Below the pieces are notes generated by a model. It was given only the letters and a program-made list of their open reading frames with translations. It did not search any database and had not been told where the DNA came from. Positions 5,764-30,171 of a DNA stretch of 64,000 bases are shown piece by piece (position 1 is the first letter of the stretch; every line of letters begins with the position of its first letter). The DNA is from an uncultured delta proteobacterium (GTDB lineage Bacteria > Desulfobacterota > Desulfobacteria > Desulfobacterales > Desulfosalsimonadaceae): the NCBI GenBank assembly GCA_963826785.1, contig CAWGYD010000001.1, positions 64,001 through 128,000 on the forward strand, written 5' to 3'. The position numbers and the translations under genes were made by a program.

Positions 5764-5838
5764 TTAACCTTTGGTTAGGGCGCAGACAACCAGAAAATAA
5801 TTAATAATTGAATACAAACCGATCACTTTAGAGAGACA

Positions 5839-5876: not shown

Positions 5877-6202
5877 GCCGCATCAAAGGAAATCGGCGAA
5901 ACTTTCTTTCTGGCTTAAAAATTGCATCTTTATACCGCCTATAGTGGATGCGCTAAATCCCATTCATCGCAATTGAGCTGTCGGCTTCATTCAAGCAATT
6001 TGCGGGGGAATCGGGTTTTTTTTATTGACAAGTGCCTGCTACAGTGTGGCAGTATCACAAACTGATATGGTTGCAAATTTTGACAAGACCGTATTCAAAA
6101 GAGGACACTTTTATCATTGGCGCGGTAATCTGTTTGTTCTAACGGGATGAGCAGTTATCGCATTTATTGGTAATCTTATGTACCAGGAGACAGTAATTGA
6201 AG

Positions 6203-12966: not shown

Positions 12967-14136
12967 TTAAAGTCCGGCCAGTGCCCGGATTTCATCTGCC
13001 CTGTTGGTCTTCTCCCAGGTAAAATCGGGGTCTTTCCGGCCGAAGTGACCGTATGCCGACGTCTTGCGGTAGATGGGGCGCAAAAGGTCCAGGTATTCGA
13101 TAATGGCCGCGGGCCGCAGGTCGAAAATCTCCCGGACGATTTCCCTGGCCTTGTATTCGGGGATATTGCCGGTGCCCAGAAAATCCACCAGGATGGAGAC
13201 CGGTTCGGCCACGCCGATGGCATAGGCCACCTGGACCTCGCATTTTCTGCCCAGCCCGGCGGCCACCAGGTTCTTGGCGATGTGCCGGCCCATGTAGGAT
13301 GCGCTCCGGTCCACCTTGGAGGGGTCTTTTCCCGAAAAGCAGCCGCCGCCATGGCTTCCCTGTCCGCCGTAGGTATCCACGATGATCTTCCGTCCGGTCA
13401 GCCCGCAGTCGCCCATGGGGCCGCCGATGACAAACCGTCCGGTGGGGTTGATGAAGTAGCGGGTGTCGCCGTCCACCATATCTTTGGGAATGGTTTTTTT
13501 GATCACCTCTTCAATAACGGCTTCCTTGACCTCGTCATAGGTGGCATCGGCCTTGTGCTGGGTGGAGACCACCACCGTGTCCACCCGCTTCGGAATGCCG
13601 TCGATGTACTCGATGGTGACCTGTGACTTGCCGTCGGGCCTCAGGAAATCCACCGAACCGTTTTTGCGGACCGTGGCCAGGCGCTTGGTCAGCTTGTGGG
13701 CAAAGGAGATGGGCATGGGCATGAGCTCCGGGGTCTCATCCGAGGCAAAGCCGAACATCAGCCCCTGGTCGCCGGCCCCCTGCTCCTTGAAGAGCCCCTG
13801 GCCCGTATCCACGCCCTGGGCGATATCCGGGGACTGCTGGCCGATGCTGGTAAGCACCGAGCAGGTCTGCCAGTCGAATCCCATCCGGGAAGAATTATAG
13901 CCGATATCCCGGATGGTATTTCGCACCACCTGGGGGATGTCCACGTAGCATTCTGTGGTGATTTCGCCGGAAACGAAGGCCAGTCCGGTGGTCACCAGGG
14001 TTTCGCATGCGACCCGGGCATGTTTGTCCTGTTCGATAATGGCATCCAGAACCGAATCGGAAATGGCGTCGGCAACCTTGTCCGGATGCCCTTCGGTTAC
14101 GGATTCAGAGGTAAAAAGGACGCTGTTCTGTGTCAT
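12967..14136 (-). CDS. metK: S-adenosylmethionine synthetase
   Basis: [50 protein letters not shown]. Confidence 0.98.
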
Positions 14137-14286: not shown

Positions 14287-15141
14287 TCAGCCTTTTTCCG
14301 GCTCCAGCACCATATTGTCGATGAGCCGCACGCTGCCCACCTTGACCGCTAAAGCCATCAGCACCGGTCCGGCGACGGTATCCACATTTTCCAGGGTGGA
14401 AGGGTCACAAACGGCGATGTAGTCGACGGTCGTTTCAGGGTGGGCGCCGATGATCTGTTCTGCCGCATGAATCAGGCGCCCGGCGTCGGTTTCCCCCCGG
14501 CGCACCTCGTCCCGGCAATGGTTCAGGGATTGAATCAGCAGCAGGGCGGGCTCCCGCTGGTGAGGCGCCAGGCGGACATTTCTGGAACTCATGGCCAGTC
14601 CGTCGGGTTCCCGGAAAGTCGGCTGGCCGATGATCTCGATGTCGAAATCAAGGTCCTTGACCATCCGCCGGATCACCGCCAGCTGCTGGAAATCTTTTTC
14701 CCCGAACACCGCCGCATGCGGGTTCACAATATGAAAGAGCTTGGCCACGATGGTGGTCACGCCCCGGAAATGGCCGGGCCGGGACAGTCCGCACAGGTGC
14801 TCCGGCAGGTTTTCCTGCACCACGTACGTTTCGAACCCGGCCGGGTACAGCGATCGGGCATCGGGGGCAAACAGCACGTCCGCGCCTGCGTTTTCGGCCA
14901 GAGAACGATCCCGGTCCATATCCCGGGGATAGGCCGCCAGGTCTTCTCCCGGCCCGAACTGCGTGGGATTTACGAACAGACTGACCACCAGATTATCGCA
15001 GACCTGCCGGGCTTTATGCATCAGGGAAAGGTGCCCTTCGTGGAAGTAGCCCATGGTAGGCACCAGGGCGATGCGGTTGTCCGCCCCTCTCATCCGTCCG
15101 GACCAGTTTTTCATTTCTTTTATGGATTGAATGACCTCGAT
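14287..15141 (-). CDS. panC: Pantoate--beta-alanine ligase; probable non-canonical ATC start at 15141 (first ATG is 15114)
   Basis: VPTMGYFHEGHLSL, FVNPTQF, RPGHFRGV, FGEKDFQQ, GLAMSSRN, RLIDN. AGGAGG lies 9 nt before ATC-GAG-GTC-ATT-CAA-TCC. Confidence 0.95.
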   Translation of the reverse strand: MEVIQSIKEMKNWSGRMRGADNRIALVPTMGYFHEGHLSLMHKARQVCDNLVVSLFVNPTQFGPGEDLAAYPRDMDRDRSLAENAGADVLFAPDARSLYPAGFETYVVQENLPEHLCGLSRPGHFRGVTTIVAKLFHIVNPHAAVFGEKDFQQLAVIRRMVKDLDFDIEIIGQPTFREPDGLAMSSRNVRLAPHQREPALLLIQSLNHCRDEVRRGETDAGRLIHAAEQIIGAHPETTVDYIAVCDPSTLENVDTVAGPVLMALAVKVGSVRLIDNMVLEPEKG

Positions 15142-15154
15142 GTGAGCGGTCCTC

Positions 15155-16483
15155 CTATTCGAAAAGTGCGTTCATCACCTGGCCGGTGATAACCTTGGGA
15201 TAATAAAACGTGGTTTTCCGGGGCATGGTCAGCCCGGCTTCGGCGATCTTCCGGACCTGGTCGTTTGTGGGCGGATTCAGGATAAACGCCACGTCATGCG
15301 TTCCCGAGGCGATGGCCGCCGCCGCATGCCGCACGTTGCTGGTAAACGCCATCTTTTCCGGATCATCGAGATCCTCCGGCGCCATGTTCATGATTTTCAT
15401 GAGCACCAGCCGGGTCAGCACCGTCACGTCGAGCTGAAGAAGCGGTGAGGGGATCTGGCCGGCAAATATTTTTTCCATGATACCGGGTTTAAGGGTCATC
15501 ATGGCGCATTTGGGCTGATGTTTCATCAGCAGGCCGATGCGGTGCACCCCGTTTTCAGCCGCCATTGCCGACTGGAGGCAGTTCAGGGCCGTTTTCGTTT
15601 GAGCGGGATCGACCGGCATTTCGGTGATATCAAAGTAATCCTGCGCAGCAATTCGAAACGCCTCTGACTGCTGTGCATCGATATCGGACAGCAGCCGGTG
15701 GGTCGGGAGAATGATCAGCCCCTGGTCCTGCACCGGGCACAGATACATCATGATGTAATTGGCCGGATGGTCGGCGGGCAGCTCCGGCGTCTGCTGTGCC
15801 AGCCAGTTCCGGTAATTGAGCGCGGTCTCGTAGCGGTGGTGGCCGTCGGCAATGTAGAGCCGCCGGTCGGCAAATCCATCGGCCACCGATTTTACCAGAT
15901 CCGGGTCGGTGATGCGCCACAGCCGATGGCGGTGGCCGGCATCATCGAAAAAATCCTGATCCGCCCCCTTTCCGGCGGCAAAATCCGTTAACGCGGCCAT
16001 GACCCGGTCCTTATCTGAAAAAATAGAAAATATGTGGCTGAAATTGGCCTGGCATGCCTTCATCAATTCCAGGCGTTCGGATTTCACCTTGGAAAATGTT
16101 TCTTCGTGGGGGAGCACCACCCCCTTGTCAAAGGGTTCCAGCCGGACCCGGGCGATCAGCCCGAAGCGGCTGACGGTTTTGCCTTCCAGTTCAAAATCGA
16201 TACGGGTGAGGTAATAGGCCGGGATCGGGTCCCGGATCAGAATCTTCTGGTCCAACCAGTCCCGGAAACATCCGGCCGCCCGGGTGTACGGATTGTCTGC
16301 ATCCGTATCGGCGGCGGTGGGCATGTTCTTGTCCAATCGGATGATATTATGGGGATGCCTCGTATAAAACGCCTCCTGCTCCTTTCCGGAGATGATGTCG
16401 TAGGGCGGAGTGGTCACTTCAGACAGATTTTCAATTTTCCCGGTGTCATAAAAAATTCCCTGAAACGGAAGAACAACAGCCAT
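15155..16483 (-). CDS. DUF1015 family protein
   Basis: TPPYDII, VLPHEET, YIADGHHRYETA, ILPTHR, MPRKTTFYYPK. Confidence 0.85.
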   Translation of the reverse strand: MAVVLPFQGIFYDTGKIENLSEVTTPPYDIISGKEQEAFYTRHPHNIIRLDKNMPTAADTDADNPYTRAAGCFRDWLDQKILIRDPIPAYYLTRIDFELEGKTVSRFGLIARVRLEPFDKGVVLPHEETFSKVKSERLELMKACQANFSHIFSIFSDKDRVMAALTDFAAGKGADQDFFDDAGHRHRLWRITDPDLVKSVADGFADRRLYIADGHHRYETALNYRNWLAQQTPELPADHPANYIMMYLCPVQDQGLIILPTHRLLSDIDAQQSEAFRIAAQDYFDITEMPVDPAQTKTALNCLQSAMAAENGVHRIGLLMKHQPKCAMMTLKPGIMEKIFAGQIPSPLLQLDVTVLTRLVLMKIMNMAPEDLDDPEKMAFTSNVRHAAAAIASGTHDVAFILNPPTNDQVRKIAEAGLTMPRKTTFYYPKVITGQVMNALFE

Positions 16484-16573
16484 AAATTCTATTTCCTTGT
16501 ATGCGGCGCGAATGATCGAACAGCCCCGGCGGCAGTGAAGCCCGGTCGAGTGGTTGAATTTGTTAAGCGAGAA

Positions 16574-16602
16574 ATATTAATGAACTTTAATAAATTTGTC
16601 AA
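16574..16602 (-). promoter_or_regulatory. Putative sigma70 promoter for DUF1015-panC-metK
   Basis: Minus strand TTGACA (16602-16597), 17-nt spacer, TAATAT (16579-16574). Confidence 0.45.
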
Positions 16603-17044
16603 CTTTATTCAAAAAAGTTGCCTAATCGCTATAATTTTTAGTGGGTTGTATGGACTTTGAGTGGGGGTTGACAAAACAATATTTTTATTATAATAATATC
16701 AAATCATTATATATTACTATAGAAACAAAATTTCAGGCATATAAAAAGTAATTCGTAAAAAAAAATTTGCCGAATTTAAGAACATCATTATTCTCTTAAA
16801 TAACCATTAAAAGGCCATTTAACATGAAATGGATTTTGCGGGGCCTATATTCAGATGATATATTAATGAAAATTAGATTGAAATAACGCACTGAAAAATA
16901 TCCCACTAGAAAATTTATAAAAATCATTTTAATCAAACACTTATATTGTATATAATTAATAGCATGATCTAATTCAATTTGTATTAATTTCTATGATTTA
17001 GATTTATGAGATCGTGCGCAAATGACGACAGGAGGAAAATTTTC

Positions 17045-17881
17045 ATGCAGCAGAATACCTATTCAGAAACTGTCGAGGTTGCCCGGACCTATTACAACAG
17101 CTCGGATGCCCATAATTTCTATACCACCATATGGGGCGGGGAAGATCTTCACCTGGGCATCTATGAAAAGGCGGATGACGCCATTTTCGATGCCAGCCGC
17201 AGAACCATCGCCCACATGGCCTCCCGGTCCGCCTCGATGGGCAAAAAGATTCGCGTGATTGACCTGGGGGGCGGTTTTGCCGGATCGGCGCGGTACCTGG
17301 CCAAAAATTACGGGTGGGAAGTGGTGGTGCTGAACCTGAGCGAAACTGAAAATGAATGGGGTCGGCGGATGAACCGGGAGCAGGGGCTGGATCATCTCAT
17401 AGAGGTAGTGGACGGCAGCTTTGACGACATTCCCTTCCCGGATGGGTCTTTTGACATCGTCTGGTCCCAGGATGCCATCCTGCACAGCGAAAACCGCGGC
17501 CGGGTGATTGAGGAAGCCTACCGGGTGCTCAAGCCCGGCGGCGAGATGATCTTTTCCGATCCCATGCAGTCAGACGACTGCCCCGACGGGGTGCTGGACA
17601 AAATTTATCAGCGCATTCACCTCAAAAGCCTGGGATCTCCCGCCTTTTACATGGATCATGCCCGGAAGACCGGGTTTGGCCGTGTCGATTTTGAATCCCT
17701 GACGCCGCATCTCACCACCCATTATGACCGGATCCTGCAGGAAATGATTGCCCGCGCAGATGAACTGGAAAAGGTGGTCAGCCGCGAATACATCACCAAC
17801 ATGAAAGAGGGCCTCCGCCACTGGGTGGATGGCGGAAGCAAGGGATATCTGGCCTGGGGCGTATTCCATTTCACGAAATAG
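17045..17881 (+). CDS. SAM-dependent N-methyltransferase, sarcosine/dimethylglycine N-methyltransferase (SDMT)-like
   Basis: YYNSSDAHNFY..IWGGEDLHLGIY, DLGGGFAGSARYLA, WSQDAILHS, FSDPMQ, YLAWG; AGGAGG RBS. Confidence 0.85.
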   Translation: MQQNTYSETVEVARTYYNSSDAHNFYTTIWGGEDLHLGIYEKADDAIFDASRRTIAHMASRSASMGKKIRVIDLGGGFAGSARYLAKNYGWEVVVLNLSETENEWGRRMNREQGLDHLIEVVDGSFDDIPFPDGSFDIVWSQDAILHSENRGRVIEEAYRVLKPGGEMIFSDPMQSDDCPDGVLDKIYQRIHLKSLGSPAFYMDHARKTGFGRVDFESLTPHLTTHYDRILQEMIARADELEKVVSREYITNMKEGLRHWVDGGSKGYLAWGVFHFTK

Positions 17882-17966
17882 CGCTGCGGCACAATCTTGT
17901 ACCTAATTTTCCGTTTTTGAACGGACGAATAATCTTACCAAAAACCAAAAGAGGAGGAATTTGAAC

Positions 17967-18605
17967 ATGGCAGTTGATTTGGGAAATATGGCGAATTTGC
18001 TGATCGCGGGTAAAGTGGACGATGTCAAGGCAATGACCGGGGAAGCGATTGATGCGGGCATGGCTCCGGAGGAAATCTTGCAAAAAGGCCTGATCGCCGG
18101 CATGGAAGTGGTGGGCCAGCGGTTCAAGGCCTGTGAGATGTTCATTCCCGAGGTGCTCCGCTCGGCAAAAGCGATGAGTTCGGGCATGGAGCAGCTGCGT
18201 CCCCTGCTGGTGGCCAGCGGCGCCAAGATGGCCGGGACCCTGGTGATCGGGACCGTCAAGGGCGACCTGCATGATATCGGTAAAAACCTGGTGGGAATGA
18301 TGTTCGAAGGCGCCGGGTTCAAGGTGGTCAACCTGGGCATCGACCTGGATTCACAGGTATTCGTGGATGCGGTCAAGGAGCACAAGCCCGAACTGCTGGG
18401 CATGTCCGCCCTGCTCACCACCACCATGCCCAAGATGGGCGAGGTGATCAACGCCCTGAAAGAAGCCGGTATCCGGGATGAAGTCAAGATCATGGTGGGC
18501 GGCGCACCGGTCACCGAGGAATTCGCCAGGGAAATCGGCGCCGATGTTTACGGCGCCAACGCCGCCAGCTCAGTGGACAAGGCCAAAGCGACGCTCGGGC
18601 TATAG
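17967..18605 (+). CDS. Corrinoid (B12-binding) protein, MttC/MtbC-like
   Basis: GTVKGDLHDIGKNLV (DxHxxG), SALLTTTM, MVGGAPVT; N-terminal cap domain. Confidence 0.95.
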   Translation: MAVDLGNMANLLIAGKVDDVKAMTGEAIDAGMAPEEILQKGLIAGMEVVGQRFKACEMFIPEVLRSAKAMSSGMEQLRPLLVASGAKMAGTLVIGTVKGDLHDIGKNLVGMMFEGAGFKVVNLGIDLDSQVFVDAVKEHKPELLGMSALLTTTMPKMGEVINALKEAGIRDEVKIMVGGAPVTEEFAREIGADVYGANAASSVDKAKATLGL

Positions 18606-18623
18606 GCGCCTGATCACAGAGAA

Positions 18624-18705
18624 TCTCTCGCAAAGCGCGCAGGGGGCGGTCAGGAAATATTTTTTCAATTTCTTTCTTTGCGGTCCTTTGCGCCCTGGTG
18701 AGAGA
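18624..18705. repeat. REP-like imperfect palindrome
   Basis: TCTCTCGCAAAGCGCGCAGGGG ... CTTTGCGGTCCTTTGCGCCCTGGTGAGAGA, with complementary ends. Confidence 0.45.
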
Positions 18706-18784
18706 ACTCGAATACCGGGTGAAAATAGAAACAGTCAGGTTTCCGGATGCTTTGCCGAAAACCTTCAATATACAGGAGATGCTC

Positions 18785-20270
18785 ATGCAATGGGAATGTA
18801 ATATGCCAAAAATGGAGATCATGAACCATACCGTCCAGGAGACGCCCAGTTACCGTGTCCTGACGGAGGATCAGATCGAACAGATATATTTCGCCGCACT
18901 TGAAGTGCTGGAGCGGGTCGGCTCCCGGGTGCACCAGGAAGAGGCACTGGAACTGTTCCGCAGCAGCGAGGCCGTTGTCGGCGACGACAAGCGGGTCCGG
19001 GTGCCGGTCTCCCTGGTGGAGCGGGCTTTAAAGACATATCCCCGGAAGATCACCCTCAAGGGGCGAAACGGCGTCCGGTCCATGGCCCTGCAGAAGGACC
19101 ATGTCTATTTCGGCACCGGCTCCGATTTGCCCTTTACCTATGACCGCAAGACCGGCGAACGCCGCCGAACCCTGTACAGCGACATTGTCAACGCGGCCCG
19201 GATCGTGGATGCGCTGCCCAATTACGATTTTTTCATGTCCCACGGCATCGTGGGCGATGCGCCCAATCCCCTGACCTATGACCGGCACCAGTTCATGGCC
19301 ATGCTGGAGGGGTGCACCAAACCGATGGTGCTCACCAGCGTGGACGGCGAAGGGCTTAAAGATCTGTGGAAAATGGCCTGCCTGGTGCAGGGGGGCGAGG
19401 CGGAATTTCGGTTAAATCCCATGTTCGTGGCCTACATCGAGCCGATCTCACCGCTGACAAATGACCGCACTGCGGTGGAAAAACTGTCTGTTTGCCGCGG
19501 AAAAGGGGATCCCGGCCATGTACACGCCGTGTCCGTCCTCCGGCGCCACCGCGCCGGCCACCATTGCGGGCATGCTGGTCCAGTCCCTGGCCGAAACCCT
19601 GCTGGCCGTGGCGCTGTGCTATCTCAAGAAACCGGGCATGCCGCTGGTCATGGGGGGCGTGACCACCGTCATGGACATGCGCACCACCACCTATTCCTAC
19701 GGCGCCCCGGAACTCTCCCTGGCCTCGGCCGCCAACACGGACATTTCCAAGTGGCTGGGACTGCCCATGTTCTCCACCGGCGGATGCACCGATGCCAAGG
19801 TGCTGGACGAGCAGGCCGCCATCGAGTGCACCATCAGCCTGCTCAATGCCTACATGTCCGGCGCCAACCTGGTCCATGACGTGGGATACATCGATTCGGG
19901 GGTAAACGCCTCTCTGGAGAGCCTGGTCATGAACGAGGAGATCATCCGCATGGTCCGACAGGTCGGAAAAGGGATCAAGACCGATGAGGCCCACATGGCC
20001 TTAAACATCATCGATGAAGTGGGCCCCGGCGGCGAATACGTCACCCACGACCATACCTATGAACACTGGAAGGAATGGTTCAAGCCGCAGCTCATCGACC
20101 GTTCGGATTGGGAAACCTGGAATGCGGAAGGGAAAAAAACCATGCTGGACCGGGTCAATGAGGAGACTGAAAAGCTGCTCAACACCTATCAGCCAAAGCC
20201 CCTGGATGAAAAACTGGCCCAGGAGGTTCGGGCGGTTGTTGAAGACGCGGACCGGCGGCATTCCCATTAA
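18785..20270 (+). CDS. MttB-superfamily (trimethylamine-type) methyltransferase 1, non-pyrrolysine; +1 frameshift near 19487
   Basis: IYFAALEVLERVG, FGTGSD, EPISPL, SGATAPATIAG, YGAPE, STGGCTDAK. Removing one T in AAACTGTCTGTTT restores EKLLFAAEKG. Confidence 0.88.
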
Positions 20271-20325
20271 TTTCGTCTCCCCCAAAAGGTGCGGCGTAAA
20301 GATAGGTTAACAGGAGAATACAATT

Positions 20326-21792
20326 ATGACCATCAGGACCAATTATACAGTTAACAAGACCCCCCGGTTTTCGTTTCTTTCCGAAGACCAGAAGGACCGG
20401 TTGTTTCGCGGGGTCATTAAAACCTTGAACGATACCGGCGCCAACGTGAACCACGAAGGCGTCCGGGAACTGCTGGGGAAAAACCGGTGCAACGTGGACG
20501 GAAAACGGGTGCGGATTCCGCCGGAAGTGGTCAAAGATGCGCTCTCATCGCTTCCGCCCACCACCACCCTGTACAGCTGGGACGGCAGCGAGGAGATGGT
20601 TTACGTGGAAAAAGGGCGCAGCTATTTCGGCCCCGGCCCCACCCCGCCCAATTTCATCGATCCCTACACTCTGGAGCGCAGACCCTATGTCCGAAAGGAC
20701 GCAGAGATCGTGGCCCGGGTCTGCGATGCCCTGCCCAACATCGGCTACGTCCAGTCCCTGGGTTCGATAAACGACGTGACCAACGGCTTGGCCGACGTGT
20801 ACGAGTTTGCCGACATGATCCAGCACACCCGCAAGATCATCATGAACTGGGCCTTCAACGTGGAAAACATCAAGGACGAGCACAAGATCGGCATCATCAT
20901 GGCCGGCGGGGAAGAAGCCTTCCGGCAGCGCCCGAACTTCATCCATTACAGCGAGCCCATTTCGCCCCTGACCAGCGACTTCGACGCCATCGGCAAGTGC
21001 ATGTACTGCGCCGAGCACCGGATTCCACAGGTCTATACCCCCTGCTGCATCGGCGGGGCCACCGTGCCGGCCACCCATGCGGGCCAGCTGGTGGTGGCCA
21101 TGTCCGAGGCCATGGTGGGGGTGGTGGTCTCCCAGTTGATGAACCCGGGCACCTGCATCATCATCGGCGGGGTTCAGTCCATCCTGGACATGCGCCGGGC
21201 CATCTATTCCTACGGCGCACCGGAGCTGGGGATCATGAGCGCGGCATTTACCGAACTGCTCAGCCATGTGGGCCTGCCCATGTACTCCACCTCGGGATGC
21301 ACCGACACCAAGATGATGGAACTCCAGTCCGGCATCGAGGCCGCTTATTCCATCCAGATGGCCATGTACAGCGGCGCCAATTTCGTTCACGACAACGGAT
21401 ACACCGAATCCGGGATCACGGGAGATGTCTACCAGACCATCATGGACGACGAGATCATCGGCATGTGCAGGCTCATCGGCGGGGGCGTGGAAGTCAACGA
21501 AGAAACCCTGGCCGTGGAAGAAATCTGCAGCGTGGGGCCCGGCGGTCATTACCTGTACGAAGACCATACCATGAAGCACTTCCGGAATCACTGGGTACCC
21601 ACACTCATGGACAGAAACTCCTACGAGGACTGGGACGCCCAGGGCCGGACCACCATGAAGGAGCGGATCGTCAAGAAGGGGCAGGATATCATCGAAAACT
21701 ACCCCGGCCCGAGTGTCAAGGTGCCGGCGGAGGCCAAGGCCGATATCGACAAGGTCCTGGCGGCCGCCGAGGAACGGGTAAAATCTCTGTAA
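20326..21792 (+). CDS. MttB-superfamily methyltransferase 2, non-pyrrolysine
   Basis: EPISPL, GGATVPATHAG, YGAPE, STSGCTDTK, VGPGGHYL..DHT. Confidence 0.92.
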   Translation: MTIRTNYTVNKTPRFSFLSEDQKDRLFRGVIKTLNDTGANVNHEGVRELLGKNRCNVDGKRVRIPPEVVKDALSSLPPTTTLYSWDGSEEMVYVEKGRSYFGPGPTPPNFIDPYTLERRPYVRKDAEIVARVCDALPNIGYVQSLGSINDVTNGLADVYEFADMIQHTRKIIMNWAFNVENIKDEHKIGIIMAGGEEAFRQRPNFIHYSEPISPLTSDFDAIGKCMYCAEHRIPQVYTPCCIGGATVPATHAGQLVVAMSEAMVGVVVSQLMNPGTCIIIGGVQSILDMRRAIYSYGAPELGIMSAAFTELLSHVGLPMYSTSGCTDTKMMELQSGIEAAYSIQMAMYSGANFVHDNGYTESGITGDVYQTIMDDEIIGMCRLIGGGVEVNEETLAVEEICSVGPGGHYLYEDHTMKHFRNHWVPTLMDRNSYEDWDAQGRTTMKERIVKKGQDIIENYPGPSVKVPAEAKADIDKVLAAAEERVKSL

Positions 21793-21805
21793 ACGATGCA
21801 ACTTT

Positions 21806-21849
21806 CGTGAACGTGAACGTGCATGTGCTCGTGCACGTTCATGTGCATG
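21806..21849. repeat. Intergenic degenerate hexamer repeat (CGTGAA/CGTGCA/TGTGCA type)
   Basis: CGTGAACGTGAACGTGCATGTGCTCGTGCACGTTCATGTGCATG; a similar tract lies at 14225-14256. Confidence 0.6.
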
Positions 21850-21888
21850 AAAAAGCGCCTTTTGATCAATGATATGAGAAATGATGAA

Positions 21889-23943
21889 ATGACCAGTACC
21901 AACAAACCCTTCGATCCCGGCGCGCGTCAGCGCAGCCGGGGGCGAAAGGAAGGCGGGGCTGATTACGTGGTGGGGATCGATACGGGAGGCACCTACACTG
22001 ACGGGGTGCTGCTGGATTACCGATCCCGCAGCGTCCTTGCCTCCGGCAAGACCCTGACCACCCGGGACGACCTGTCCCGCGGGGTGATCGAGGTCTTGAA
22101 GATGCTCGCCATCAAGGATCCCGGCCGGATCCGGCTGGTGGGGATTTCCAGCACCCTGGCCACCAATTCCATCGCCGAGGGAAAGGCCCGGGAGGTCGGG
22201 CTGATCCTCATCGGATACGACCCGGACCTGATCGAAAAATTTTCGCTCAAGGACAAATTCACCACTGCCCACTATGCCATCTTCAAAGGGGGGCACACCC
22301 CCCAGGGTGCGGAAAAAGCGCCGCTTGACCTGGAAGGGATCAGAAATTGGGTGGATCTTTACAAGGACCGGGTGGATGCATTTGCCATTTCAAGTTATTT
22401 CAGTCCTTTGAATCCATCCCACGAGGAGGCGGCGTTTGCCGAAATCCGCGATATCGGCGATCACCCGGTAGTGATGGGACACCAGTTGTCCACCCAGCTC
22501 GACTCGATCAAGCGGGCGGCCACGGCCTCCCTCAATGCCTCCCTGGTGGCGGTGATGCAGGAATTTATCATTGCGGTGGGCGATGCGCTCAAATCCCAAA
22601 ATATCAACGCCCCCCTGATGATCGTCAAGGGGGACGGGTCCCTGATGCCCTATACCGAGGCATCCGAAAAACCGGTGGAAACCGTGCTGTCGGGTCCGGC
22701 CGCCAGTGCTATCGGCGGTCAGTTCTTTTCCCATCACGCCAATGCGCTGATGATCGACGTGGGGGGGACCACCACGGACATGGCCTTCATCGAAAACGGC
22801 CGGGTGGCGGTGACCGACACCGGGGCCCGGGTGGGTCAGATCGAGACCGCCGTCCGGGCGGCCCGGATCCGCACCGCCTGTGTGGGGTGCGACAGCCGGA
22901 TCGCCTTTGCCCAGGGCGGCGTCACTACGGTGGGACCCGACCGGGTGGTTCCCCTGTCGCGCCTGGCCCACCGGTTCCCCCAAGTGGCCGACAGCATCGA
23001 GGCGCTCTTTCGATATGAAAACCATATGTGGAGCGCAGCCGACATCCGTTACTGGTACATGCACCGGCCGGATGACGCCGATATCGTCCAGGGATTGGAA
23101 CCCCGGCAGCGCCAGCTGGTCAATCAGCTCAAGGAGGGACCGAAAAGCGTGTTTCAACTGGTCCGGGCAACCAAAGTCAATCATGAGGTGCAGCTATGTG
23201 CAGATCTGCTCCTGCGGCAGGGAATCATCGAGGAGGCCACCCTGACGCCCACGGATCTGCTGCATATCAACGGCCGGATGGACCTCTGGGATGTCCGCAC
23301 CGCCCGCCGGGCAGTCGAGGTCGCCTGCGCGGTCAACGGAAAGGACACAAAGACGTTTGTGGAAGAAACGTTGGACCTGATCATTGCCATGATGGTGAAG
23401 GAGGCCGTGATCTTCCTGGCCCGGCAGGAAAGCCCGCATGAACTGCCGGAAACCATAGCCGGCCCGTGGGGAAAATGGATGATCGATGAGGCGGTTGCCC
23501 GCCGCGATCCCTGCCTTTCCGTGCAGATCTCCTGCCGGTATCCGATTATCGGGATCGGTGCGCCCGCCGAATATTTTGTAAAACGGGTGGCGGAGCTGCT
23601 CAAAGCCCCCTTCGTGCTTCCCCGGCATGCCGGTGTGGCCAACGCGGCCGGGGCCGTTGCCGGCTCCGTGGTCACCGAGCAGGAGGCCATCGTCTATATC
23701 CAGGAATCCGATGACCAGCACTGCCACATCGTTCAGATCGGAGAGGACCGGAAAACCTTCAACGAATATGATGAGGCCATGGCTTATGCCCGGAAAGCAT
23801 CGGGCAGCCGGGCCCTGGAGAAGGCCGAATCCGCCGGCGCCGCCGCCCCCCAGGTCAGTATTACCGTAAAAACCGAAGGGGCCATCGAGCGCGTGCGCGC
23901 CCGGGCTGCGGGCAACCCGAGACTGAGCGAGCAGTGGGGCTGA
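21889..23943 (+). CDS. Hydantoinase/oxoprolinase A-like (ASKHA-fold) ATP-binding protein
   Basis: GIDTGGTYTDG, STLATN, TVLSGPAAS, IDVGGTTTD, TPTDLLH, VANAAGA; start uncertain. Confidence 0.85.
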   Translation: MTSTNKPFDPGARQRSRGRKEGGADYVVGIDTGGTYTDGVLLDYRSRSVLASGKTLTTRDDLSRGVIEVLKMLAIKDPGRIRLVGISSTLATNSIAEGKAREVGLILIGYDPDLIEKFSLKDKFTTAHYAIFKGGHTPQGAEKAPLDLEGIRNWVDLYKDRVDAFAISSYFSPLNPSHEEAAFAEIRDIGDHPVVMGHQLSTQLDSIKRAATASLNASLVAVMQEFIIAVGDALKSQNINAPLMIVKGDGSLMPYTEASEKPVETVLSGPAASAIGGQFFSHHANALMIDVGGTTTDMAFIENGRVAVTDTGARVGQIETAVRAARIRTACVGCDSRIAFAQGGVTTVGPDRVVPLSRLAHRFPQVADSIEALFRYENHMWSAADIRYWYMHRPDDADIVQGLEPRQRQLVNQLKEGPKSVFQLVRATKVNHEVQLCADLLLRQGIIEEATLTPTDLLHINGRMDLWDVRTARRAVEVACAVNGKDTKTFVEETLDLIIAMMVKEAVIFLARQESPHELPETIAGPWGKWMIDEAVARRDPCLSVQISCRYPIIGIGAPAEYFVKRVAELLKAPFVLPRHAGVANAAGAVAGSVVTEQEAIVYIQESDDQHCHIVQIGEDRKTFNEYDEAMAYARKASGSRALEKAESAGAAAPQVSITVKTEGAIERVRARAAGNPRLSEQWG

Positions 23944-24030
23944 CCCGGCCGGAATCATCAGGATGCATGCGGATCGAAAATGACAATGCGGATGAAACAG
24001 GTGCTTGTAATGACCTAATGGCGACGGGAA

Positions 24031-24241
24031 TGGAATGGTGGAATGATGGAATGATGGAGTGATGGCACATGTCCTAACCATCGTGATCTTGCTATGCCTA
24101 CCCTTGAGGTACGACCCTCCTAAATTCCCCCCTTGAGGGGGGCGAAGGGGGGTGTAAGGCCTTGCGGCAAACAAATACAGCCGGTTATACAAGTAGTGCT
24201 GTTTCTCCCATTATTCCATTATTCCAATATTCCATCATCCA
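24031..24241. repeat. Composite intergenic element: TGGAATGA octamer array, central CCCCCTTGAGGGGG palindrome, inverted octamer array
   Basis: 4 units at 24031-24062; reverse-complement units at 24208-24241. Confidence 0.6.
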
Positions 24242-24311
24242 ATTGTGTCTGCCTTCCCTTGGGCCAATTTCATCTCAAATTTGAAAAATACGTTTTAAGG
24301 TAATTGCTCAT

Positions 24312-24848
24312 ATGACAAGTGAATACGTCTTTTCGGCCGTTGGGAGAAACATCACCGGTACGGTGGCCAAGGTTTCCAAAGAGATATACGCGTGCGGGTG
24401 CAATTTCGAGGATTCCCGCATGACCCTGCTGGGCAGTCATTTCGCCCTGATGATCCTGGTGACCGCCAAAGGCGATGAAATGGGCCGGGAACTGGCGCGG
24501 CGCTGCGACCGGCTGCAGCAGGATACGGATCTGGCCATCACCCTGTTTCCGGTGGACAAAAACATCCCGGAAGGAAAAAGGACGCCCACCGAACCCAATT
24601 ATGAAATCCGGGTCAAGGGTGCTGACCGGATGGGGATCGTCTACCGGACCACCCAGCTGCTGGCTGAACTCAACATCAACATCGTGGAGATGAAAACCCG
24701 CCTGGTGCCGGGCAAGAAGGGGGAGCCCCTTTTTTCCATGCGCATGGGGGTGGCCGTGCCCCGGGAAGTGGACGGGGAAACCCTGCGCAATGAACTCAAA
24801 TACCTGGCCGAGGACAACCGGGAGATGATTTCACTTACCCGGATGTAA
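24312..24848 (+). CDS. Double ACT-domain protein (GcvR-like)
   Basis: SAVGRNITGTVA...CNFEDSRMTLLG.HFALMIL; second ACT domain VKGADRMGIV. Confidence 0.8.
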   Translation: MTSEYVFSAVGRNITGTVAKVSKEIYACGCNFEDSRMTLLGSHFALMILVTAKGDEMGRELARRCDRLQQDTDLAITLFPVDKNIPEGKRTPTEPNYEIRVKGADRMGIVYRTTQLLAELNINIVEMKTRLVPGKKGEPLFSMRMGVAVPREVDGETLRNELKYLAEDNREMISLTRM

Positions 24849-24857
24849 AGGTGGATT

Positions 24858-26636
24858 ATGCACGAACTTAAAATCGAAGGCTACGATAAGGTCATCTTGA
24901 CCCGCAGGGGCGAGAGCGTGCGCGACGCCCTGTACCGGGCGGGGGTGGAGATCGACTCCCCCTGCAGCGGCGACGGCATATGCGGCAAGTGCCTGATCCG
25001 GGTTTCGCCCCCGGGCGCGGTGGCCAGGACGCCCCACAGGGACATCACAGAAGAGCAGGCGGCCGATGGGGTCCGGCTGGCCTGCCAGGTGATCTGCCGT
25101 TCGGACATGGCCATTTCCCTGCTGTCCGACTTTGCCGTGGACGAGCACCGCATTCTGGAGGGGGACCGGGACCCCGATGCAACGCCGTGGGGGGGAGAAA
25201 AGAAACAGCATTACGATGACCACTATACCGGGGGAAAGCGATCCGCCGTGCGCCTGGAGCGTAAAAATCGCACCCGCATCTTCCATTATGAATCCGATGC
25301 GCCCGCTGTCCTGAAACCCTGGAAAAAAGGCGCCGCTCCCATGGGGTTGGCCGTGGATCTGGGCACCACCACCATGGTGGCCACGGTGGTGGATTTGGAT
25401 ACCGGGAAAGAGATGGCCACCACCTCGGGGTTAAATCCACAAATCCGGTTCGGCCATGACGTGGTCCGCCGGATTCAGCACGGATCGAGCCGGGAAGGGC
25501 TCCGGGAGCTGGTCGACTGCGTCGGCGAGGGGATCAATGATCTGGCGGCACAGGCCTGCGAGGATTCGGATGTGTCACCGGAAGAGATCCTGGATGTGGT
25601 CATCGGCGGAAACACCGCCATGCTGCAGATTGCCGCCGGCATCGATCCCGAGCCCCTGGGCCGGGTCCCCTTCACCGTGGATCTCAAAAGCGGCCGGCAC
25701 TATCTGGCAGGCGTTTTCGGCCTGCGGGTCCATCCGTTGGCCCGGGTGTATGTGCCGCCGGTGATTCACGCCTATGTGGGATCGGACATCAGCGCCGGGC
25801 TTCTGGTGTGCCGGGGCTTTTTCAGGGAGGACCGCACCACGCTGTTCATCGATATCGGGACCAACGGTGAAATCGGGCTTTCCGCCAATGGAAACTGGCT
25901 GATGACATCGGCTGCGGCCGGTCCGGCATTCGAGGGGATGGGCATCTCCTCGGGGATGCGCGCCCGCATCGGCGCCATCGAGGCCCTCACCAGCGACGGC
26001 CGGTCCATCAAGGTGCACGCCATCGGTGATGTCAAACCCACCGGGATCTGCGGCAGCGGCATTATCGATGCCGCCGCGGTGCTTTCAAAAACCGGGGTCA
26101 TCGATCCGTCCGGCAGGATGGTGATGCCGCCGGATGCGCACCTGCCGGGCATGCTGGCCTACCGGCTGGAGAGGGTCGATGACAAGCCGGCCTTCAAGCT
26201 GGCCGACGATGTCTATTTTACCCAGGAAGATGTGCGCCAGGTGCAGCTGGCGAAAAGCGCCATCCGGGCGGCCATCGATATCCTGCTTTCAGAGGCCGGC
26301 ATCACTGCAGACGATATCGACCGGATCATACTGGCGGGGGGATTCGGCTACAGCCTGCGGCCCAGAAACCTGGAGGCCATCGGCCTGCTGCCGCCCGGGA
26401 CTGCACCCCGCGTCTATTTCGCCGGCAACACCTGCCGCATCGGGTGCGTTCGCATGCTGCGCAGCGTGGACAACCGGCGCTTTATCGAGGAAAAGGTGAA
26501 AAAGATCCGGCATGTGGCCATTGAAACCCGCCCGGACTTCATGGAGCAGTATGTGGAGGCCATGGAATTCCCGGAGATCGTCCGGGGCCGGGAAAATACG
26601 GGAGCCGTTTCAAAAATCCATGCAAATTGCAAATAA
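24858..26636 (+). CDS. Reductive activator of corrinoid proteins (RACo/DUF4445 ASKHA ATPase with N-terminal [2Fe-2S])
   Basis: CSGDGICGKC...RLACQ, DLGTTT, NPQIRFGHDV, DIGTNGE, AAGPAFEG, GICGSG, LAGGFG. Confidence 0.92.
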   Translation: MHELKIEGYDKVILTRRGESVRDALYRAGVEIDSPCSGDGICGKCLIRVSPPGAVARTPHRDITEEQAADGVRLACQVICRSDMAISLLSDFAVDEHRILEGDRDPDATPWGGEKKQHYDDHYTGGKRSAVRLERKNRTRIFHYESDAPAVLKPWKKGAAPMGLAVDLGTTTMVATVVDLDTGKEMATTSGLNPQIRFGHDVVRRIQHGSSREGLRELVDCVGEGINDLAAQACEDSDVSPEEILDVVIGGNTAMLQIAAGIDPEPLGRVPFTVDLKSGRHYLAGVFGLRVHPLARVYVPPVIHAYVGSDISAGLLVCRGFFREDRTTLFIDIGTNGEIGLSANGNWLMTSAAAGPAFEGMGISSGMRARIGAIEALTSDGRSIKVHAIGDVKPTGICGSGIIDAAAVLSKTGVIDPSGRMVMPPDAHLPGMLAYRLERVDDKPAFKLADDVYFTQEDVRQVQLAKSAIRAAIDILLSEAGITADDIDRIILAGGFGYSLRPRNLEAIGLLPPGTAPRVYFAGNTCRIGCVRMLRSVDNRRFIEEKVKKIRHVAIETRPDFMEQYVEAMEFPEIVRGRENTGAVSKIHANCK

Positions 26637-26656
26637 GACAATTATTCAGAAGGCAG

Positions 26657-27352
26657 ATGAAAGTTCAAAAAAGACAGAAGCACGCCCGGGTGGTGATCGC
26701 CTGCCGGGTGATCCGGGCCGAACTGGAGGCGCTGCGGACATCCCGCACAACCGATGTGGAGGTGCATTACCTGGACCAGAACCTGCACCGGACGCCGGAT
26801 CGGATGCCTGCGATCATCCAGGCGGAGATCGATGCGGCAGCAGAATATGCTGCCGAGATCATTCTCGGCTACGGCCTGTGCTCAAACGGCGTGGTGGGCG
26901 TCCGGGCCGCAAACCAGCCCATCTATATCCCCCGGGTGCACGACTGCATCTCCCTGCTGCTGGGGTCGAGGGGCATCTACCAGAAGGCCTTTTCCGGCCG
27001 GCCGGGCACCTATTACCTGACCCCGGGATGGATGGCCGAGGAAAAAGATCCCCTGGGGATGATGGAAAACGAATATGCCCCCAAGATGGGCCGCGAGACG
27101 GCCGAATGGGGGATCCGGGAGGAGCTGAAGCATTACACCCACATCGTTTTTATCAACACCGGGGCAGGGGACATCGATTTTCTGCGGGACCGGGCGCGCA
27201 AAAATGCCGCGTTTCTTAAAAAAGAATTCGAAGAAGTGGCGGGATCGATGGATTATTTTCAAAAAATCCTGTTCGGGCCAAACGAGCCCCCGGATTTCGT
27301 CTGCATTCCGCCGGGTGAAAAGATTGCGGCCAGGCCGTTTTTAATGGATTAG
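26657..27352 (+). CDS. DUF1638 family protein
   Basis: VIAC.VI, LH..P, LGYGLCSNG, HDCISLLLG, YYLTPGW. Confidence 0.85.
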   Translation: MKVQKRQKHARVVIACRVIRAELEALRTSRTTDVEVHYLDQNLHRTPDRMPAIIQAEIDAAAEYAAEIILGYGLCSNGVVGVRAANQPIYIPRVHDCISLLLGSRGIYQKAFSGRPGTYYLTPGWMAEEKDPLGMMENEYAPKMGRETAEWGIREELKHYTHIVFINTGAGDIDFLRDRARKNAAFLKKEFEEVAGSMDYFQKILFGPNEPPDFVCIPPGEKIAARPFLMD

Positions 27353-27465
27353 AAGAAGTGGTTTCAAAGACCTATTTCAGGCGGCGATGGCTGACCTGCC
27401 TCGACCCTGATCTGAAATTTTGAATCGCTTCCACGCAAGTTAATTCAGCATTAAGGAGCGATTTT

Positions 27466-28263
27466 ATGCAAATTGTCGGAGAACTGATCAATTCATCCCG
27501 AAGCGCCATCAAGGCGGCCATCGAAAAAGGAGATGGGGCCGAGATCCAGCGCATCGCCAAGGCGCAGCATGAAGCCGGGGCCGGCTACATCGATGTCAAC
27601 GCGGGCACCTTCGTGGGAAAGGAAGCCGAATATATGAAATGGCTCATCACCCAGGTGCAGTCCGCAACTGAAACCCCCTGCTGCATCGACAGCCCGGATC
27701 CCAGGGTGATCGAGGCGGCCCTGACGGTGCACCGGGGAACCCCCATGATCAATTCCATTTCCCTGGAAAAGGATCGCTATGATGCCCTGCTGCCGGTGAT
27801 CGCCGGCACGGATTTCAAAGTGATCGCCTTGTGCATGAGCGATGAGGGGATGCCGGAAACCAAAGACGACCGCTTGGCCATTGCCGAAAAACTGATCAAT
27901 GCCCTGGTCAAAGAAAACGTGGCTGTGGAGAACATCTATGTGGACCCGCTGGTGCAGCCGATCTCCACCAAAGATTCCTATGGCATCGAATTTTTAGATG
28001 CCATATCGGCCATCATGACCGGCTTTCCGGGGGTCAACACGGTTTGCGGACTGTCAAATATTTCATATGGCCTGCCGGAAAGAAAGCTGATCAATCAGAC
28101 CTTCATGGCCATGGCCATCGCCAGAGGCTTAAACGGCGCCATCATGAATCCCCTGGACAAAAAGATGATGGCCAACATCATCACCGCTGAAATGCTCTCC
28201 GGCCGGGACGAGTACTGCGGGAATTTTCTGACGGCCTACCGGGAGGAGAAGTTCAAGTTCTGA
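27466..28263 (+). CDS. Methyltetrahydrofolate:corrinoid methyltransferase (AcsE-like pterin-binding barrel)
   Basis: IVGELIN, IDVNAG, IDSPDP, MINSIS, VDPLV, GLSNISYGLP. Confidence 0.92.
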   Translation: MQIVGELINSSRSAIKAAIEKGDGAEIQRIAKAQHEAGAGYIDVNAGTFVGKEAEYMKWLITQVQSATETPCCIDSPDPRVIEAALTVHRGTPMINSISLEKDRYDALLPVIAGTDFKVIALCMSDEGMPETKDDRLAIAEKLINALVKENVAVENIYVDPLVQPISTKDSYGIEFLDAISAIMTGFPGVNTVCGLSNISYGLPERKLINQTFMAMAIARGLNGAIMNPLDKKMMANIITAEMLSGRDEYCGNFLTAYREEKFKF

Positions 28264-28285
28264 TGCATTCAGGGAAGTAACATGA

Positions 28286-28482
28286 CCCGAGGCGACATGG
28301 CAGCGGATTTCTCCCGCTCACTGTTCATGATTTTGATGCTTCTAAGATTCGCTCCGCTGCATCCTGGAAACTCGCCTGTCGGCTCAGACAGTCCAGGATG
28401 CGGCCGCTCCGCTTCATCTAAGAAGCATTCGCAAAATAATGAAGCAATGTTCGCCGGGAGAAACCCACAGCCATGTCTTGGG
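28286..28482. repeat. About 200-nt nested imperfect palindrome (MITE/REPIN-like or structured RNA)
   Basis: Paired arms GACATGGC/GCCATGTC, TTTCTCCCG/CGGGAGAAA, ATGCTTCT/AGAAGCAT, GCATCCTGGA/TCCAGGATGC. Confidence 0.7.
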
Positions 28483-28587
28483 CCATCCATTTCCTTTTGC
28501 AAAAATATCGCGCAGCAGCGTAGTGAAATTCAAGAAAGAGCTTGGCTGCACGTACACGATTTTTAATAAAAATCCATGGAGGAAAAC

Positions 28588-30171
28588 ATGAAAGTACTCG
28601 TCAGCGATAAACTCGGACAGGCCGGGATCGACATATTCGAGGCGGAAGAGGGAATTGACGTGGATGTCAAGACCGACCTGTCGCCCGACGAACTTAAAAG
28701 CGTCATCGGCGACTATGACGCCCTGGTGGTGCGCAGCGCCACCAAAGTGACCGAAGATTTGCTGGAATCGGCGGGAAAACTGCGGGTGATCGGCCGTGCC
28801 GGCATCGGGGTGGACAACATCGATCTGGCGGCGGCCACCCGGCGGGGCATCATCGTCATGAACACCCCCGGCGGCAACATTGTGACCACCGCCGAACACG
28901 CCATTGCCATGATGATGGCCCTGACCCGGAACATCCCCCAGGGGACCGAGTCATTAAAAGCCGGCCGCTGGGACAAGAAGAAGCTGCAGGGACGCGAAAT
29001 CATGCGCAAGACCCTGGGGGTGATCGGGTTCGGCAAAATCGGGTCCATCGTGGCCAACCGGGCCCGGGGCCTGAAAATGCAGGTGATCGTCTATGATCCG
29101 GTGGTCACCCCGGAGAAGATCGAAAAGCACGGATGCGAGTCCGTGTCGCTTACCGAACTCTACCGCCGGGCCGATTATATTTCCATCCATGTGCCCAAAA
29201 TGAAGAAGACGCTGGGCATGATCGACCACAAATCGTTTGCCGGGATGAAAGACGGCGTGATGCTGATCAACTGCGCACGGGGCGGGATTGTCGACGAGGA
29301 GGCGCTCCAGGAAGCCATGTCATCCGGGAAGGTGGCCGGCGCGGCCCTGGACGTGTTCGCCCTGGAACCGCCATCGCAAGATCATCCCCTGCTCAAACTT
29401 CCCAACCTGATCGCCACGCCGCACCTGGGGGCCTCCACCCTGGAAGCCCAGACCAATGTGGCCGTGGCCATCGCACAGCAGATCATCACCTTTTTGAAAA
29501 CCGATACCATTGAAAATGCCGTCAATGCCGCCTGCGTCTCCTGTGAGATAATGGAAAAGCTGGCGCCGTTCATCCATCTGGCCGATCGGATGGGTCGTAT
29601 CCAGGCGCAACTGGTCTCGGGCCACATCAAGGAAGTGGAAATTTCATACAACGGGGATTTTCTCCATGACGATCTGGCCCCCGTTACCACCGCTTTCCTG
29701 ATGGGGCTGCTGGAACCGATTACGTTGGATGACGTCAACATGGTCAATGCGCCCTGGCTGGCCAAGGAAAAAGGGATCAAGGTGTCCGAAGCCACCAGCG
29801 CCGACGCCAGTGAATACAACAATCTGATCACCATCAAGGTCGTCACCGATGAAGGAAACAATGCCGTGTCCGGCACCGTATTCGGCAGGAGCTATCCCCG
29901 GGTGGTGAAGATCAACGATTTCCGGCTGGAGATGGAACTGGAAGGGTACATGACCCTGATTCAGAACCAGGACAGGCCCGGCGAGATCGGAAACATCGGC
30001 ACCGTTTTAGGGGAGCACGACATCAATATTTCCCGGATGACCGTGGGGCAGGCCCGGGGCGGCGGACGCAACATCGTGGTGCTCAGGACCGATTCCGCCC
30101 TGGATGACGGCATCATCGCCCAACTTCAGGACCTGCCCATGAGCCGGTCGGTGACCTACCTGGAATTGTAA
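28588..30171 (+). CDS. serA: D-3-phosphoglycerate dehydrogenase (type I, with ASB and ACT domains)
   Basis: VRSATKVT, RAGIGVDNID, GFGKIG, NCARGGIVDE, TPHLGAST.EAQ, C-terminal DRPG.IG ACT domain; GGAGG RBS. Confidence 0.95.
   Translation: MKVLVSDKLGQAGIDIFEAEEGIDVDVKTDLSPDELKSVIGDYDALVVRSATKVTEDLLESAGKLRVIGRAGIGVDNIDLAAATRRGIIVMNTPGGNIVTTAEHAIAMMMALTRNIPQGTESLKAGRWDKKKLQGREIMRKTLGVIGFGKIGSIVANRARGLKMQVIVYDPVVTPEKIEKHGCESVSLTELYRRADYISIHVPKMKKTLGMIDHKSFAGMKDGVMLINCARGGIVDEEALQEAMSSGKVAGAALDVFALEPPSQDHPLLKLPNLIATPHLGASTLEAQTNVAVAIAQQIITFLKTDTIENAVNAACVSCEIMEKLAPFIHLADRMGRIQAQLVSGHIKEVEISYNGDFLHDDLAPVTTAFLMGLLEPITLDDVNMVNAPWLAKEKGIKVSEATSADASEYNNLITIKVVTDEGNNAVSGTVFGRSYPRVVKINDFRLEMELEGYMTLIQNQDRPGEIGNIGTVLGEHDINISRMTVGQARGGGRNIVVLRTDSALDDGIIAQLQDLPMSRSVTYLEL

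Follow-up and report, generated by a model that had tools for sequence, protein, structure and literature searches.

The window analysed here, a 64,000-nucleotide stretch of the genome of an uncultured delta proteobacterium of the family Desulfosalsimonadaceae (assembly GCA_963826785.1, contig CAWGYD010000001.1, positions 64,001 to 128,000), carries on its plus strand a run of genes (17045–30171) in which an SDMT-like, S-adenosylmethionine (SAM)-dependent sarcosine/dimethylglycine N-methyltransferase is joined to a corrinoid-dependent methyl transfer system. The SDMT-like gene (17045–17881; NF041675, 404 bits) begins with an ATG at 17045, preceded 8 nt upstream by the sequence AGGAGG. It is followed by a corrinoid (B12-binding) methyl-carrier protein (17961–18605; PF02310 and PF02607, with MtgC_2 at 232 bits and pyl_corrinoid at 208 bits, both below their cut-offs) and by two members of the MttB family, of which MttB1 (18803–20270; PF06253) is spread over two reading frames and MttB2 (20326–21792; PF06253, 264 bits; 2qne, 6e-61) is an intact non-pyrrolysine paralogue. 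Next come a HydA-like ASKHA ATPase, unaccompanied by HydB in the cluster (21823–23943; PF05378 and PF01968), a protein with two ACT domains and a weak likeness to GcvR (24312–24848; PF13740 and PF01842; PRK11589, 51 bits, below cut-off), a RACo-type reductive activator of corrinoid enzymes (24858–26636; Fer2, Raco_middle and RACo_C_ter; AcsV-like, 363 bits, below cut-off) and a DUF1638 protein (26627–27352; PF07796, 149 bits). The run closes with a pterin-binding methyl-tetrahydrofolate (methyl-THF):corrinoid methyltransferase (27466–28263; NF005719, 354 bits against a cut-off of 259; PF00809) and an extra copy of serA, encoding 3-phosphoglycerate dehydrogenase (PGDH; 28576–30171; TIGR01327, 656 bits); between these two, an open reading frame (ORF) of 94 amino acids (28282–28566) matches no family and has no counterpart in relatives. 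The ten named genes had been listed as one co-directional run by the first-pass annotation, and all ten are present at the coordinates it gave. According to Pfam and NCBIfam profile matches every cluster gene other than MttB1 is intact, and the same two collections reveal no transporter gene within 17045–30171.

Upstream and on the minus strand lies a divergent run of three genes, DUF1015 (15155–16483; PF06245, 302 bits), panC (14287–15114; TIGR00018, 319 bits) and metK, the SAM synthetase gene (12967–14136; TIGR01034, 589 bits), so that metK, earlier assigned to a divergent operon, is indeed its third and last member. In relatives metK is kept beside the cluster, the position of panC is conserved, and that of DUF1015 is conserved in the Desulfobacterales loci. 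The intergenic region between the two runs (16484–17044) is A+T-rich, and a consensus scan, which is the sole basis of the following statements, places promoter-like plus-strand sites upstream of SDMT at 16608–16697 and 16824–16851, a single weak promoter-like site elsewhere in the run, before serA, and no plus-strand terminator-like site between the genes of 17045–30171. At the Rfam gathering score no riboswitch or other family was found in the window or in loci L067, L019, L004 and L071, and relaxing the threshold to E values up to 1 in 16300–17200 yielded as sole match a chance-level miRNA (E 0.19). A 14-base A+T-rich motif, followed some 15–20 bases downstream by TGTCAA, is conserved in the DUF1015–SDMT intergenic region of 8 among 12 orthologous loci (L001, L003, L004, L006, L007, L012, L015 and L018) and is absent from the window's own.

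The split of MttB1, which the first-pass annotation overlooked, stems from one extra base in CTGTCTGTTT, near 19489–19494 (feature interval 19486–19495, plus strand), as seen from the translations and from DNA alignment with orthologues. The N-terminal part is read in the frame of the ORF starting at 18698 (18803–19490; PF06253 profile positions 21–246, 104 bits) and the C-terminal part in that of the ORF at 19461 (19491–20270; profile positions 242–493, 220 bits); orthologues align from residue 33–39 of the 18698 ORF. A programmed frameshift can be ruled out: MttB1 is encoded in a single frame in each of the 14 orthologues whose two halves could be located, and all seven aligned orthologue DNAs are without the extra base, which indicates a mutation or an assembly error. 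The copy seen here is thus either a damaged one of this strain or an artefact of assembly. No public sequencing run contains at least half of the sequence words of 18600–20400 (best share 0.12), and no RNA run is listed. A further frame change occurs in the same window inside the GGDEF motif of a PAS/GGDEF/HD-GYP gene (36971 onward), near 39686–39692 (window 39660–39720), where a run of six G is present and seven would be needed for in-frame reading. Together with the state of the assembly, which is 87.8% complete and in 11 contigs, this homopolymer-type indel makes indel errors plausible.

SDMT builds betaine, usually with a glycine/sarcosine methyltransferase (GSMT) as partner. The match of the SDMT-like protein to NF041675 spans model positions 6–277 of 278 and falls short of the curated cut-off of 550 bits; since GSMT-partnered SDMTs of the same phylum themselves score only 430–439 bits, this cut-off is stricter than the lineage allows. 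The protein is 52–61% identical to GSMT-partnered SDMTs, its best solved relative is the SDMT of Galdieria (PDB 2o57, 1e-58), and it is predicted to methylate sarcosine and dimethylglycine with SAM. In a midpoint-rooted FastTree phylogeny five GSMT-partnered SDMTs appear to group apart from 27 SDMTs linked to MttB.

For GSMT itself we used model NF051855, reached through a canonical metK-ahcY-GSMT-SDMT locus of the same phylum, whose GSMT matches PDB 5gwx at 2.8e-123. Across the window's genome the best score against this model is 19.8 bits, no GSMT being found, and none of the 36 class-I methyltransferase ORFs of the genome matches it. The absence of GSMT, first noticed in the window, thus extends to the genome as assembled and to 23 of its 29 relatives with a window-type SDMT, that is, to 24 of 30 family genomes, of which 14 are at least 90% complete. 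Family-wide the NF051855 cut-off is passed in 7 of 58 genomes. One genome, G463, carries a canonical adjacent GSMT–SDMT pair, and six family genomes possess a window-type SDMT and a stand-alone GSMT on another contig; the GSMT contexts examined in four of these six have neither SDMT nor metK alongside. The Bacteroidales metagenome-assembled genome (MAG) introduced below likewise has its GSMT on a separate contig, in the order metK-metF-GSMT-metE. None of the five genomes with adjacent GSMT and SDMT has an orthologue of MttB2.

The arrangement is well conserved. A scan of one genome per species recovered 19 loci with a close SDMT-like gene, 18 of them in MAGs of Desulfobacterales, Desulfobacteraceae or Desulfosalsimonadaceae and the nineteenth (L019) in a Bacteroidales MAG; the carriers are named as salt-adapted lineages, the nearest being salt-lake Desulfobacterales. 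Conservation of the cluster, which had been suggested as a check, is confirmed by the order SDMT, corrinoid protein, MttB1 in all 16 Desulfobacterales loci whose DNA extends past SDMT. The longer of these loci go on with MttB2, HydA, ACT, RACo, DUF1638 and MtrH, the divergent DUF1015-panC-metK run stands upstream of SDMT wherever the DNA reaches, and serA comes after the methyl-THF methyltransferase in five of five further family loci. SDMT is therefore tightly syntenic with the corrinoid genes and not the detached neighbour that the first-pass annotation had allowed for. In L019 the genes follow another order, all in one direction: MetH-like, MetF, corrinoid protein, MttB1, MttB2, HydA, DUF1638, MtrH, SDMT, AhcY and MetK, where the MetH is cut down to its homocysteine (PF02574) and activation domains. 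Within the window's family an SDMT-like gene is present in 31 of 58 genomes and is of the window's type (68–76% identity) in 30, nine of which were looked at for linkage to MttB.

A metagenome scan with the MttB2 alignment extended this picture to 80 loci, which we sorted by the identity of their MttB2 to that of the window, counting as informative those with at least 3.5 kb upstream and at least 7.5 kb downstream of MttB2. SDMT accompanies five of the seven loci at 79% identity or above (informative, 2/2) and 16 of the 35 at 64–78% (9/9), and it is found in none of the 29 loci at 56–63% (0/4) and none of the nine below 56% (0/1). Put together, all 11 informative loci at 64% or above carry SDMT and none of the 5 below does (21/42 against 0/38 among all loci), so the SDMT-linked MttB pair forms a separate, dedicated identity class. 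Loci of the 64–78% class are variants of the Bacteroidales gene order; L109, L111, L117, L126 and L150 are of the Bacteroidales type, with the pair between cut-down MetH, MetF and AhcY-MetK. The 56–63% class has a different order (RpiR regulator, corrinoid protein, MttB1, MttB2, HydA or RACo, major facilitator superfamily transporter, third MttB), and the clusters of this class that were examined look catabolic, with BCCT and OpuAC genes near that of L155, sarcosine-oxidase-like genes near those of L143 and L138, and an MttB of full MtgB signature in L162. Marine-sediment contigs of this kind (L155, L162, L141, L143 and L138) also bear genes of the enolase superfamily and proline-racemase-like genes near the RpiR-corrinoid-MttB cluster, which probably represents an uncharacterised betaine-type catabolic cluster.

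What could be the substrate of these MttB proteins? Non-pyrrolysine MttB enzymes such as MtgB demethylate quaternary amines, giving methyl-THF. Both proteins of the cluster, which are the only MttB genes of the window's genome, have the PF06253 fold without pyrrolysine, and they stand nearer to MtgB (2qne/9yce, 247 and 210 bits) than to the pyrrolysine enzyme 7xcl (212 bits for an MttB1 orthologue, 167 for MttB2); ESM Atlas returned generic MttB clusters only. A pyrrolysine reading was considered and rejected, as neither gene contains an in-frame TAG and the one flagged in G415 precedes the start. The two share an HDxGY motif, and both have Cys at the column occupied by TAG in a relative's pyrrolysine-type MttB genes and by Leu in MtgB. 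In MtgB, according to a 2026 study (PMC13080624), Tyr97 and Phe356 bind betaine through cation-pi contacts and Arg312 and His348 hold its carboxylate; the exchange R312L abolishes activity, and Arg312 is conserved in MtcB, MtpB, MthB and MtyB. We mapped these residues by HMMER and MAFFT alignments and observe that the columns of Tyr97, Arg312, His348 and Phe356 read S/F/H/G in MttB1 and P/Y/H/G in MttB2, in eight of eight orthologues each, so that of the four betaine-binding residues both proteins retain His348 alone. The full site signature of MttB2 is P/Y/C/H/D/Y/G. The 64–78% metagenome class agrees at these sites, its MttB2 proteins having Tyr or Phe at the Arg312 column. In a quick tree, computed without four short or partial rows (B1N_window, B1C_window, o_L092 and o_L089), the MttB1 and MttB2 clades are sisters, and each includes one member of a second pair in genome G236 (L070), which suggests that the pair is old and has been reused in several contexts. 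That second pair (L070, 5726–10775, G236:C95; also in L161) is followed by a 417-residue ORF that matches no Pfam family, and neither a corrinoid protein nor HydA is encoded in the vicinity. MttB1 and MttB2 may form a heterodimer.

Several features of the genome bear on the supply of methyl groups. It encodes the acetyl-CoA synthase of the Wood–Ljungdahl pathway, implying that methyl-THF and corrinoids are at hand, and AhcY and MetF are encoded elsewhere in the genome. Directly upstream of ahcY (G000:C3:246699-249090) lies an ArsR-type helix-turn-helix fused to a class-I methyltransferase domain, which we take to resemble the SahR type of regulator sensing S-adenosylhomocysteine. Although metK and ahcY are present, no methionine synthase is recognisable: the homocysteine-binding domain of MetH and BHMT (PF02574) was found neither in the window's genome nor in 10 of 12 family relatives, and the MetE/Mes domain (PF01717) neither there nor in 11 of the 12. 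This pattern holds in the relatives regardless of MttB, and 6 of the 12 lack MetH, MetE and MttB together; the cluster therefore does not explain why no methionine synthase is found. The serA of the cluster is one of three PGDH paralogues; the other two, also full-length and SerA-like, lie at G000:C6:750735-752318 and C6:1071014-1072606. As to the accessory genes, DUF1638 is described in PMC12478193 as a predicted corrinoid-recharging partner. A structural model of the HydA-like ATPase (mean pLDDT 65) suggests a full-length match to the ATP-binding subunits of hydantoinase, acetone carboxylase and caprolactamase.

Comparison with known systems shows that the run shares parts with several of them. 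With the GSMT/SDMT clusters of halophiles (Methanohalophilus type, PMC3176816; canonical loci L062–L064, L066 and L069) it has in common an SDMT of 52–61% identity and the neighbourhood of metK, joined by ahcY in the Bacteroidales type; unlike them it has no GSMT in the cluster or the genome, and a corrinoid set with serA stands in its place. Four further comparisons draw on portions of the respective reports. MtgBCA of Desulfitobacterium hafniense (PMC13080624) likewise comprises a pyrrolysine-free TIM-barrel protein of the MttB family, a corrinoid protein, a pterin-binding methyltransferase and an ATP-dependent reductive activator, whereas the present cluster keeps only His348, has Cys at the pyrrolysine column, contains two paralogues, is without a BCCT transporter and is linked to SDMT. 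The MtgBCD and split methionine synthase system of Ruegeria pomeroyi and Phaeobacter inhibens (PMC12478193) resembles it in the corrinoid protein, a bidirectional pterin-binding methyltransferase, a RamA-like activator, DUF1638 and MttB-family genes, and its split MetH recalls the homocysteine-binding MetH piece of the Bacteroidales relative; in contrast, the window's genome has no homocysteine-binding domain, the MttBs of those bacteria are taken as true betaine demethylases, and the portions at hand do not describe an SDMT. Compared by description, the clusters of 'Ca. Formimonas warabiya' DCMF, Sporomusa ovata and 'Ca. Frackibacter' (PMC9768040) have the same order of corrinoid protein (CoP), two MttBs (MTI), HydA-like protein and MTII, and differ in containing betaine transporters and, in DCMF, in being induced by betaine; SDMT is not mentioned in the portions at hand. 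The pyrrolysine-dependent trimethylamine MttB (PMC9842639; PDB 7xcl, 212/167 bits) belongs to the same superfamily and is set apart by the conserved Cys and the lack of an in-frame TAG in our proteins. In the literature we found no description of SDMT linked to MttB-type genes.

We tentatively read the run as a betaine-synthesis operon whose corrinoid part may use methyl-THF to methylate glycine and sarcosine, standing in for a GSMT of which no match was found, a reading to which we give somewhat less than even weight. The run is tied to betaine synthesis by SDMT, MetK, the full methyl cycle of the Bacteroidales locus, the extra SerA, the lack of transporter genes and the strict association between this MttB clade and SDMT. 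SerA would feed serine, and thereby glycine and C1 units, while the pterin-binding methyltransferase would charge the corrinoid protein from methyl-THF. Glycine and then sarcosine would receive the methyl group from MttB1 and MttB2, which may act as a heterodimer, and SDMT, fed by MetK, would carry out the last, energetically demanding step from tertiary to quaternary amine. Maintenance of an active cobalt centre would fall to RACo, DUF1638 and probably the HydA-like ATPase. More guardedly still, we propose that the Cys-bearing, pyrrolysine-free MttB pair might run in the biosynthetic direction, SAM being spent on the quaternisation by SDMT alone, at a cost of one SAM per betaine instead of three. 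The scheme is also coherent in energetic terms. Methyl-THF is estimated to be a better methyl donor than secondary and tertiary methylamines. A review table (PMC7374477) puts the conversion of betaine to dimethylglycine at -241 kJ per mol CH4, compared with -31 for trimethylamine and -63 for choline, and notes that neither dimethylglycine nor sarcosine serves as a methanogenic substrate. This contrast fits a quaternary step that requires SAM and earlier steps that do not. The biosynthetic reading would account for the missing GSMT, the extra serA, the absent quaternary-amine binding residues and co-transcription, and we rank it as the one that explains the most.

The possibility that SDMT simply adjoins an ordinary betaine-type corrinoid methyltransferase cluster, with no function in common, appears extremely improbable: while gene order can persist through descent alone within one bacterial family, the linkage turns up again, differently ordered, in Bacteroidales and across many metagenome contigs, and for this MttB clade it is strict, and recurrence in two phyla places the arrangement far from chance. 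A more substantial competitor, and in our view the main one although a rather unlikely one, is that the pair demethylates betaine and/or dimethylglycine, whether self-made or imported by OpuA, and that THF receives the methyl groups through the corrinoid protein, either for methionine or to be oxidised in the course of sulfate reduction; as salt rises, SDMT would then rebuild betaine from the leftover skeleton, making GSMT unnecessary. Such turnover would be in keeping with the activity of all characterised MttB family members, which are demethylases, and the two MttBs would mirror the two steps that SDMT reverses. PMC9768040 describes the CoP-MTI-MTI-HydA architecture as betaine-induced in strain DCMF, which takes betaine to dimethylglycine and sarcosine, and PMC12478193 has Ruegeria using the same corrinoid and pterin modules for both betaine demethylation and methionine synthesis; an OpuA system is also present in the window's genome and beside SDMT in L173. 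However, genes of synthesis and breakdown so closely spaced in one direction would run a futile cycle, and neither MttB has Arg312 or either of the MtgB cation-pi residues, whereas an MttB with the true MtgB signature exists in L162 and not in this cluster. A betaine demethylase would also be useful on imported betaine alone, yet the clade always occurs with SDMT (11/11 informative loci), and turnover gives the extra serA no role; the run, moreover, holds no transporter gene.

The poor fit of the active-site residues to a carboxylate betaine counts in favour of a third function, in which the pair strips methyl groups off another compound, delivering methyl-THF or methionine that regenerates the SAM used by SDMT, while sarcosine or dimethylglycine comes from outside or SDMT performs all three methylations. 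The placement of the pair between cut-down MetH, MetF and AhcY-MetK in the Bacteroidales type speaks for such harvesting, as does the want of a recognisable methionine synthase in the window's genome, but half of the 12 family relatives are without MetH and MetE and have no MttB either, the run has no transporter for such a donor, and the source of the SDMT substrate is left unexplained; we regard it as improbable. Of another kind is the idea that the MttB1 insertion is real and that the pathway is broken here or reduced to MttB2, whatever its role in relatives. The insertion lies outside any homopolymer and no sequencing run covers the stretch, both in favour of decay, but the indel in the GGDEF gene of the same assembly, a completeness and contig number such as would be expected of an indel-prone assembly, and the intactness of every other cluster gene render strain-specific decay doubtful.

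The biosynthetic reading itself faces a number of objections. The direction of methyl flow is inferred, and the biosynthetic direction is without precedent in the MttB superfamily, every characterised enzyme of which moves a methyl group from substrate to Co(I), as stated in PMC13080624 and PMC9768040; the same gene architecture, moreover, is the one induced by betaine in a betaine-demethylating strain. MttB pairs at 56–63% identity stand in catabolic-looking clusters with nearly the same MttB2 site signature. A GSMT does occur in some carriers, namely in 6 of the 30 family genomes and the Bacteroidales MAG, and it adjoins the cluster in L115 and L125 of the 64–78% class, which means that the MttB pair is not simply a replacement for GSMT; MAG incompleteness limits the absence calls. 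MttB1 is frameshifted in this assembly, and the HydA-like ATPase has no assigned role, its structural matches being generic. Uptake is a further concern. The first-pass annotation stated that the window holds neither GSMT nor a betaine transporter and argued from the missing uptake system; both statements are correct for the window, and no BCCT transporter was found anywhere in its genome, but a complete OpuA-type ABC uptake system is encoded outside the window at C1:15424-18474, 62–65 kb upstream of the cluster, and an OpuA transporter directly follows SDMT in L173. The suggestion made there of a corrinoid system running in reverse, with SDMT finishing the product, accordingly stands in part, and neither of the refuting tests proposed there went against it: the lack of a GSMT match, the synteny of SDMT, the extra serA, the atypical MttB sites and the identity class of their own agree with it, and the demethylating activity of all characterised MttBs and the GSMT of some carriers do not.

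Two further observations concern other parts of the window. Each of three neighbouring ORFs (4264–8548) matches myxosortase-dependent M36-type proteins over their C-terminal repeat region but has no peptidase part, and a Peptidase_C26 ORF (54995–55868) covers profile positions 93–206 only and overlaps an adjoining short ORF, so that it may be a split gene.

Glycine betaine ranks among Earth's main osmolytes, and the expense of making it is held to restrict the range of metabolisms able to persist at high salt. To our knowledge, its synthesis has been established by two routes only, the SAM-dependent one (GSMT/SDMT) and the oxidation of choline. Should the MttB pair instead demethylate betaine, the operon would constitute a built-in switch for making and unmaking the osmolyte, which is likewise undescribed. 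If the biosynthetic reading is true, two of the three methyl groups of betaine would come from methyl-THF via B12, changing the cost of this compound for sulfate reducers and other anaerobes, and, for energy-poor anaerobes, a B12-dependent osmolyte pathway would lower the energy barrier to life at high salt. Such a route would also assign a biosynthetic role to the large uncharacterised part of the MttB superfamily and tie the production of betaine in salt lakes to the supply of cobalamin.

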